From positions 1 through 40,920 of the forward strand of contig JAGVPR010000103.1 in assembly GCA_020052115.1 (NCBI GenBank): a DNA stretch of 40,920 bases, read 5' to 3'. A program made the translations under genes and the position numbers. Of the stretch, positions 23,575 through 24,072 are shown in pieces. Every line of letters starts with the position of its first letter. Positions within the stretch are counted from its first letter, which is position 1. The notes below the pieces were generated by a model, which saw nothing but the letters and a program-made list of their open reading frames with translations, searched no databases and had not been told where the DNA came from. This DNA comes from Candidatus Eiseniibacteriota bacterium (GTDB taxonomy: Bacteria > Eisenbacteria > RBG-16-71-46 > JAGVPR01).

Positions 23575-24016
23575 TCTCGGTTCCTCCTTGGTGGAATGAG
23601 AATTTGAAACCGGACGACGTCTCAAAAAGTTTATGAGTGACCTCCACAGACCAGGATTACCGCCTGCCTCACTTCCGTACGGCTCCACTTTGCGCCTCCT
23701 CTTCCTCGACCGGTCGCCCGCTTCGTGGGTCGCGGTGTGGGGTTCCGTCTCCCGGACCGACCAGCCTTCAGGGATACACACCGTTTCACCGATAGCCTGT
23801 GGGTCACTCGCGTTCAGCGATGCATTGACTTTGTGGCCACCGAGCGTTGCCCTTGAGCCCTCCTTGTCTTCAGCGCCCAACGACGATCGCCCGACCGGTG
23901 CCGCTCCCCTCGCAAGGGGAGACCGCATCGGGCGGGCCCATCCATATGTGCGCCCTGTTACTTGGGACGAATGAACGCCCCAACATCACCTCCGCGACGG
24001 GCTACTCCAAACGGTC

Positions 24017-24046
24017 AATTCGTCGCAGAATAATTCGCGGCAGAAT
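24017..24046 (-). repeat. two abutting 15-nt direct repeats (candidate operator) overlapping the -10 and +1 of the giant-gene promoter
   Basis: Minus strand ATTCTGCCGCGAATT (24046-24032) is immediately followed by ATTCTGCGACGAATT (24031-24017), 13/15 identical. Each unit is an ATTC-N6-GAAT inverted repeat. Confidence 0.6.
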
Positions 24047-24072
24047 ATGCCCACCGCCTCCAACCTTGTCAA
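24044..24072 (-). promoter_or_regulatory. sigma-70-type promoter about 460 nt upstream of the giant gene
   Basis: Minus strand TTGACA (24072-24067), 17 nt, CATATT (24049-24044). This is the best -35/-10 match I found in the 857-nt gap. Confidence 0.55.

Follow-up and report, generated by a model that had tools for sequence, protein, structure and literature searches.

In a 40,920-nucleotide (nt) stretch of DNA from a Candidatus Eiseniibacteriota bacterium (contig JAGVPR010000103.1; the whole stretch is called the window here), a gap of 857 nt on the minus strand separates the stop codon of ychF (24432) from the ATG (23574) of a giant adhesin-like gene of 18.5 kb. We propose that this gap specifies a new, structured 5′ leader, restricted to one clade, which gates translation of the giant gene, and we put the probability of this reading at about 55%. 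The gap is conserved above the neutral level and changes in a non-coding pattern; a signal of RNA structure is present downstream of the predicted promoter, and no family in Rfam accounts for it. All features described below lie on the minus strand unless stated otherwise.

Under this proposal, transcription would begin at a strong sigma-70-type promoter, P3, with a start (+1) near 24038−24035, and a second promoter, P1, approximately 240 nt further upstream, would also be used. The P3 transcript would carry a non-coding 5′ leader of approximately 460 nt that folds into two domains (I and II), an A/U-rich linker and an invariant hairpin at the translation start site. By default, the start-site hairpin would limit ribosome loading on a very costly mRNA, and whether it is opened or locked would depend on a partner acting in trans (a protein, a small RNA or a ligand) that recognizes the linker, the hairpin loop or domain II. 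We infer that the main control of the gene is post-transcriptional. To our knowledge, giant surface-protein genes are among the costliest to express, and their control is largely unknown outside model organisms. In the present case, the control region shows far stronger conservation than the giant protein itself and probably holds a large folded RNA without known relatives.

Conservation of the gap between ychF and the giant gene

Searches with the N-terminus of the giant protein found almost nothing: a 700-residue query returned no homologue, and a 160-residue query, among 5.8 billion proteins, returned only a fragment from the locus L168. Orthologous loci were therefore sought through YchF as the anchor. 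The order ychF, gap, giant gene is kept in the loci L081, L161, L163 and L168, in which YchF is 73, 75, 66 and (over a partial gene) 78% identical to that of the window, respectively, and the gap measures 849−857 nt throughout. Two further loci are near-duplicates of L163: L164 is identical to it across the gap, and L170, which differs at only two positions, was left out since it added nothing. The L168 contig is noisy. The whole region occurs in it a second time, in inverted orientation and with many indel-type differences, so that the control region and gene start are found as two convergent, error-laden copies (1775−2662 on the plus strand and 4728−5531 on the minus strand), and its ychF is split over two reading frames. 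A fold-back or chimera in the long-read assembly is the probable cause, and L168 was rejected as an independent extra sequence on these grounds. Our comparisons cover four independent lineages, with L168 as a noisy fifth.

Beyond five metagenomic contigs, the best YchF match in the same protein collection is 45−46% identical, and this next clade has neither the gap nor the giant gene. A scan of a genome collection with YchF yielded nearest species representatives at approximately 42% identity, without synteny. The window proteins that were looked up are all singletons at 90% clustering; this lineage is barely sampled.

Neutral sites are saturated between these lineages, as four-fold degenerate sites of ychF are 36−41% identical (identities at codon positions 1, 2 and 3 of the gene are 0.77, 0.86 and 0.46). 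By comparison, the gap is 71−73% identical over more than 800 nt and 93−100% identical over its last approximately 110 nt. Conservation peaks at the upstream promoter (24329−24251, approximately 0.78), at P3 and the first of two repeats that adjoin it (24083−24025, 0.76−0.88), at 23815−23796, at 23724−23675 (approximately 0.9) and from 23624 to about 23546 (0.93−1.0). The giant protein itself is approximately 50−70% identical over most of its first 1000 residues. In codons 1−40 of its gene (23455−23574), 79−81% of synonymous third positions are identical, compared with fractions of 0.20−0.90, mostly 0.3−0.7, in later 40-codon bins. Nucleotide-level constraint thus appears to span the promoters, the leader and approximately 120 nt of coding sequence (CDS). 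Within these first codons, a GC-rich hairpin (GAUCGCCG...CGGCGGUC, 23533−23500) is predicted by the consensus fold inside the coding segment for the membrane anchor or signal. We read the whole gap, from its pattern of conservation, as a dense control region under selection. Searches with blastn and nhmmer of the window and of approximately 1.5 Mb of retrieved loci revealed no paralogous copies of the leader.

A preliminary description of this DNA, made from the window alone, had noted that the gap has no credible open reading frame (ORF) and a visibly lower GC content. The fall in GC content (0.57−0.60, against 0.64−0.70 in the flanks) and the non-coding pattern both hold, with the correction that the giant-gene frame is mechanically open upstream as far as 23928. 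In this frame, 114 nt upstream of the ATG, a Shine–Dalgarno (SD)-like run and potential start, GAGGAGG-N6-GTG (23686−23701), is present in all orthologues, and the 117 nt from its GTG (23688−23686) to the ATG contain no stop codon or indel in the four good sequences. Variable sites in this interval fall on codon positions 1, 2 and 3 in 11, 8 and 9 cases, and most of the changes are non-synonymous; over a 42-nt stretch within it, just two substitutions distinguish the five sequences, and one of these affects a third codon position. This spread, together with the near-invariance of the 42 nt, argues for constraint at the nucleotide rather than the protein level. The SD-like run is itself paired inside domain II in the consensus fold. 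Neither strand of the gap contains a small ORF whose start, length and sequence are all conserved, and antisense ORFs, small ORFs and an extension from the in-frame GTG were all rejected on their substitution pattern or inconsistent length. Judged by these patterns, the approximately 460-nt P3 leader is non-coding.

The same description had suggested that any RNA element in the leader would be of an unrecognized type. This agrees with the absence of an Rfam match in a region of strong conservation and clear structural signal. When 23300−24700 was searched with cmscan at E ≤ 10, the single match was a chance CRISPR-repeat hit of 18.8 bits, against a threshold of 45 bits, and the gaps of L081, L161 and L168 gave no match at E ≤ 5. 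A scan of the whole window at gathering thresholds recovered a flavin mononucleotide (FMN) riboswitch and two tRNAs, none of them in the gap. The families covered include the c-di-GMP-I and c-di-GMP-II classes, other riboswitches, OLE, GOLLD, ROOL and raiA, and no family explains the leader.

Predicted structure of the leader and its start site

Consensus folding with RNAalifold divides the leader into the parts named above, and the main helices are the same with five and with four sequences. Domain I (23815−24038) contains a long stem (23942−23919/23908−23882) capped by CUCCCCU-UGCG-AGGGGAG (23921−23904); at eight of its 17 pairs both bases change and remain paired. Domain II (23635−23809) is closed by a helix of GAGUGACCCACAGGCU (23809−23794) with GGUCUGUGGAGGUCACUC (23652−23635), encloses an inner helix (23766−23758/23716−23708) and has a structure conservation index (SCI) of 0.76. 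In L163, the closing helix appears to be kept through C>G and A>C changes and a shift of register, as read by eye from the alignment, in which the shifted pairing is unscored. The 16-nt A/U-rich linker that follows (AUAAACUUUUUGAGAC, 23619−23634) is unpaired in both single-sequence and consensus folds. The fold of the window sequence on its own reproduces the layout of domain I, domain II, linker and start hairpin.

Across the predicted structure, 22 pairs change on both sides, compared with 4−10 when partners are slid along the alignment and 9.5 ± 2.4 in shuffles, none of which (0/500) reached 22. We also compared consensus folding energies with those of column-shuffled alignments, in which dinucleotide content is not preserved. 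The resulting z-scores were −4.8 for domain I, −6.4 for domain II, −5.1 for the start-site hairpin plus CDS and −7.4 for the whole leader. Controls ranged from −1.6 to +1.7 for six windows of ychF CDS, and the parts of the gap upstream of P3 scored −0.8 (ychF stop to P1) and −1.9 (P1 to P3). The structural signal begins at P3, which lends independent support to a transcription start there, and a leader of approximately 460 nt from near 24036, as put forward in the preliminary description, fits with it. In all three parts of the leader, the fold of the sense strand is more stable than that of the antisense strand. These folding models indicate that the leader carries conserved secondary structure beyond what its sequence conservation would imply.

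The predicted leader ends in a hairpin at the start site (23560−23618). The SD sequence AAGGAGGA (23589−23582) lies 7 nt before the ATG and follows an A/U-rich stretch; both had been pointed out before, as had the capping hairpin of domain I, and all three are present. In the predicted hairpin, both the AUG (23574−23572), which lies within the stem, and the 3′ half of the SD, whose GGAA pairs with UUCC, are base-paired. The minimum free energy is −20.6 kcal/mol (z-score −2.1 against shuffles), and the same hairpin forms in the fold of the full leader. Identity across it is 0.93−1.0, with 20 of the 21 pairs invariant, an SCI of 0.98 and an alignment-shuffle z-score of −3.3. Its apical loop is invariant, and the linker is conserved in sequence in part. 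This conservation of loop and linker points to sequence-specific recognition. The occlusion of SD and AUG, and the constraint that runs approximately 120 nt into the CDS, did not feature in the preliminary description.

If the hairpin is regulated, the factor that opens it probably acts in trans, because no conserved alternative pairing of the hairpin arms with the upstream leader was found with RNAduplex: the energies were no better than those of shuffled arms, and the positions were inconsistent. No conserved intrinsic terminator or attenuator was found in the leader either, a U-run after domain II being present in the window only.

Several points weigh against a translation-gating leader. 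Both the +1 and the leader length are inferred, and the leader could be longer if transcription reads through from ychF or P1. The covariation rests on four to five sequences and has low statistical power, the pairs were counted in the very sequences that had yielded the RNAalifold structure, and the column shuffles do not keep dinucleotide content. The SCI of domain I is low (0.38), and there the antisense strand scores no worse than the sense strand. The start-site hairpin is invariant and so provides no covariation evidence, such that a DNA-level or protein-binding constraint is equally possible. With no conserved alternative pairing, no mechanism of switching in cis is visible.

A more ambitious version, which we hold as tentative, takes the leader and the first approximately 120 nt of CDS together as an undescribed large cis-regulatory RNA, in which domain I or II would bind a ligand, protein or small RNA and so set access to the start-site hairpin, making it a new class of sensor. 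If the RNA does sense a signal, it would represent a new class of regulatory RNA and offer a handle on when this uncultured lineage deploys its main adhesin. In practice, the locus supplies a clearly delimited seed alignment from which a new RNA family could be built.

Promoters, repeats and alternative readings

The P3 promoter, TTGACA-17-CATATT (24044−24072), had been recognized at these positions in the preliminary description and is present as stated, with its −35 hexamer at 24072−24067, a 17-nt spacer and its −10 hexamer at 24049−24044. It matches the sigma-70 consensus at 10 of 12 positions and is the sole sigma-70-like site in a scan of 23300−24700 (shuffles, 0.1 ± 0.5). P3 is very probably a real sigma-70-type promoter, because its hexamers are invariant across all orthologues while the spacer has diverged in sequence and in length (17 or 18 nt). 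The corresponding transcription start is predicted at 24038−24035. A promoter of the same type (TTGACA-N18-TACACT, 1637−1608) ends 12 nt before the FMN riboswitch (1470−1596, 103.5 bits), which lies upstream of a ribD-like ORF (228−1517; deaminase and RibD_C domains), and this suggests that the organism uses promoters of the P3 type. Readings of the conserved blocks as sigma-54 or extracytoplasmic function (ECF)-type promoters were rejected, since by eye they are not conserved in the alignment.

Upstream of P3, a pattern match identifies the candidate promoter P1, TTGACA-N18-(TGn)TAGCGT (24282−24311), which was absent from the preliminary description. TTGAC and TGnTAGCkT are found here in all orthologues, and local identity is 0.73−0.81. 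Directly after P1 stands an element, ACCGCGGTTTCGGGCAACCGCGAAACGG (24254−24281), kept in four of five sequences, which is predicted by RNAalifold to form a 7-bp helix (CGCGGUU/AACCGCG) within CGCGGTTTC-GGC-AACCGCGAAAC. Between P1 and P3, the window retains a degenerate remnant (P2, 24190−24220) of a site whose intact form, TTGACG-N17/18-(TGn)TAGCkT, occurs only in L081, L161 and L163 (alignment columns approximately 232−262); the window's sub-clade has lost it. This region has up to three tandem promoters of one design, TTGAC-N17/18-TGnTAGCkT or CATATT. Approximately 22 nt upstream of the P3 −35 hexamer there is an inverted repeat, ACCGA-N11-TCGGT (24094−24114), the L081 counterpart of which, ATCGA-N11-TCGAT, is altered in both arms. 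It could be a binding site for an activator or other factor, or an RNA helix in transcripts from P1.

The most striking feature of the window sequence at first sight is a pair of abutting 15-mers at 24046−24017, ATTCTGCCGCGAATT (repeat 1, 24032−24046) and ATTCTGCGACGAATT (repeat 2, 24017−24031), which are identical at 13 of 15 positions and each of the form ATTC-N6-GAAT. Both are present as the preliminary description had reported, and it had proposed that a dimeric repressor binds the two adjacent sites. The orthologues tell against such an arrangement. Repeat 2 is found only in the window and in L168 (as ATTCTGCGACGGATT); L081, L161 and L163 lack it, having unrelated 3′ halves at this position, where only TCTG(C/A)G is shared more widely. 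The palindrome of repeat 1 is intact in the window, L081, L161 and L168 and broken in L163 (ATTG...GAAT). A conserved double operator is not supported, since repeat 2 is limited to the window's sub-clade and, from its distribution, is a recent, lineage-specific feature.

The nearly invariant repeat 1 shares bases with the −10 hexamer and extends over the GC-rich discriminator and the predicted +1. The ATT of its left half-site is where the −10 hexamer ends, and the rest of the repeat is covered by (C/G)TGCCGCGAATT, which follows the invariant CATATT in every orthologue. Repeat 1 is explained at least as well as part of the core promoter and the transcript 5′ end as it is by an operator.

A reduced repressor model, in which ATTC-N6-GAAT over the P3 −10/+1 region is the operator of a dimeric repressor and the sub-clade gained a second site, is in our view doubtful, though it has more in its favour than the other alternatives. 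Although divergence is saturated and the promoter spacer varies freely, approximately 20 nt, CATATT(C/G)TGCCGCGAATT, hardly change, and the palindrome is whole in four of the five sequences. The motif is also rare, with one copy per approximately 56 kb in unrelated loci. The window has exactly two copies, both in the repeats, against an expectation of 0.40 from shuffles, 4 of 100 of which reach two. Set against this are the missing second site in three of four lineages, the broken palindrome in L163 and a left half-site whose ATT simply belongs to the −10 hexamer. The same bases form the GC-rich discriminator and the transcript 5′ end and lie in an RNAalifold helix. A search for further copies of the motif, which the preliminary description had recommended as a way to define a regulon, found none elsewhere in the window or in the orthologous loci, and a domain search of the ORFs in the 40-kb window revealed no gene for a transcription factor or other regulator. 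Taken as a whole, the promoter, the long leader and the unrecognized RNA of the preliminary description stand, and its tandem operator does not extend beyond the window's sub-clade: the eye-catching repeats are not the conserved part of the system.

A separate non-coding RNA gene might account for at least part of the conserved stretch that follows P3, with the giant gene having its own start nearer the ATG, but this is unlikely. Domains I and II do fold as self-contained units, with a long helix closing domain II and an unpaired linker after it, and no switch in cis ties them to the start-site hairpin. However, the interval from P3 to the ATG has no conserved terminator, the U-run that follows domain II being confined to the window, nor is there a second conserved promoter close to the ATG; conservation is continuous and rises towards the start codon, and the gap length is fixed in all orthologues.

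Somewhat less probable still is control of the CsrA/RsmA type, in which a GGA-binding protein would repress translation from the GGA of the hairpin loop and from GGA sites in domain II. CsrA recognizes GGA in hairpin loops that overlap SD sequences (PMC7652899, PMC4894983), the apical loop ACCAAGGA displays a GGA overlapping the SD, and of the five GGA motifs that all sequences share, three are unpaired in the consensus fold. However, GGA is not enriched (13−15 copies per 480 nt, against approximately 13 from base composition), and any SD placed in a loop would show one.

The least probable alternative, that the giant protein starts at the upstream GTG, with a 38-residue N-terminal extension in which the GTG is read as the initiator Met, a leader of approximately 345 nt and AAGGAGGA/ATG as an internal or alternative start, can draw on the conserved, in-frame GAGGAGG-N6-GTG and the uninterrupted 117 nt but is at odds with the substitution pattern, the 42-nt near-invariant stretch and the pairing of the SD-like run described above, as well as with the typical signal/anchor N-terminus that MNSNGKRALVLIV... 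already provides behind an optimally spaced SD, the choice of the ATG by gene callers in other assemblies and the unremarkable nature of a 39-codon open frame at this GC content (chance estimated at approximately 0.25).

Genomic context and comparison with known systems

The window is an ordinary chromosomal segment of a high-GC bacterium, including tig, clpP, clpX, lon, purA, tRNA-Lys and ychF. The same-strand upstream neighbour of the gap, ychF (24432−25472), encodes a protein of 346 residues with the Pfam domains YchF-GTPase_C and MMR_HSR1. The giant gene (5053−23574) encodes 6173 residues, with an N-terminal signal/anchor segment, VWA and bacterial Ig-like domains and a C-terminal FlgD_ig domain; its L163 orthologue has 6161 residues and is called from the same ATG. 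On the 3′ side of the giant gene there is an OmpA-like gene and then a pilin-like gene: the OmpA-family protein (540 residues) starts 98 nt past the giant-gene stop and is followed by the pilin-like N_methyl protein (the two together at 2602−4954). These two may be co-transcribed partners of the giant protein. Elsewhere in the window (38365−40701), a secreted S8 peptidase with CarboxypepD_reg and MAM-like domains has a FlgD_ig C-terminus like that of the giant protein, and this common domain may be a shared export or sorting signal in the lineage.

Among known systems, classic palindromic operators over the −10/+1 region resemble this locus in the single ATTC-N6-GAAT that lies across the P3 −10/+1 and is kept in most orthologues. 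In contrast to them, the tandem arrangement is not conserved here, half of the left arm is the −10 hexamer, and neither a cognate regulator gene nor regulon copies were found in the window and orthologous loci.

The RfaH/ops (JUMPStart) system likewise has a long leader ahead of a very long transcription unit. The ops consensus is GGCGGTAGnnTG. Near-matches occur in domain I of L081 (CGGTAGCGTG, approximately 5176−5185) and L161 (GCGGTAGCGTG, approximately 2361−2371), at alignment columns of approximately 219−230, but the same position reads CGGTGGCCAC in the window, CGGTGGTGCC in L163 and CGGTGGCGGC in L168 and lies in a predicted helix. An ops element was rejected, as the near-matches are confined to L081 and L161.

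An unstructured A/U-rich segment directly 5′ of a stable hairpin at the ribosome binding site (RBS) recalls ribosome standby, as modelled for the MS2 coat gene (PMC5934652). The likeness is one of mechanism only, and the linker here is 16 nt long, with a sequence conserved only in part.

Translational riboswitches offer a closer parallel, in that a multi-helix domain with a long closing helix precedes an SD-occluding hairpin at a surface-protein gene. The c-di-GMP-I and c-di-GMP-II classes are linked to adhesin and motility genes. Unlike these RNAs, the present leader matches no Rfam model at E ≤ 10, is much larger, at approximately 460 nt, than typical aptamers and has no detectable alternative pairing between the closing helix and an expression platform.

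The rpoS mRNA of E. coli has a long leader with an inhibitory stem at the RBS that is opened by the small RNAs DsrA, RprA or ArcZ with Hfq (PMC2831331, PMC3783183). Shared features are a leader of several hundred nt, an intramolecular block of both SD and AUG and an A/U-rich single strand just upstream, and, with no opener seen in cis, an activator in trans is implied here too. The two leaders differ in that they have no sequence or Rfam relationship, and the upstream part of the present leader has much more structure, in the form of two conserved multi-helix domains; this leader is also better conserved than the protein encoded after it. By analogy, the closest functional counterparts of this leader would be trans-opened leaders of the rpoS type and translational riboswitches.

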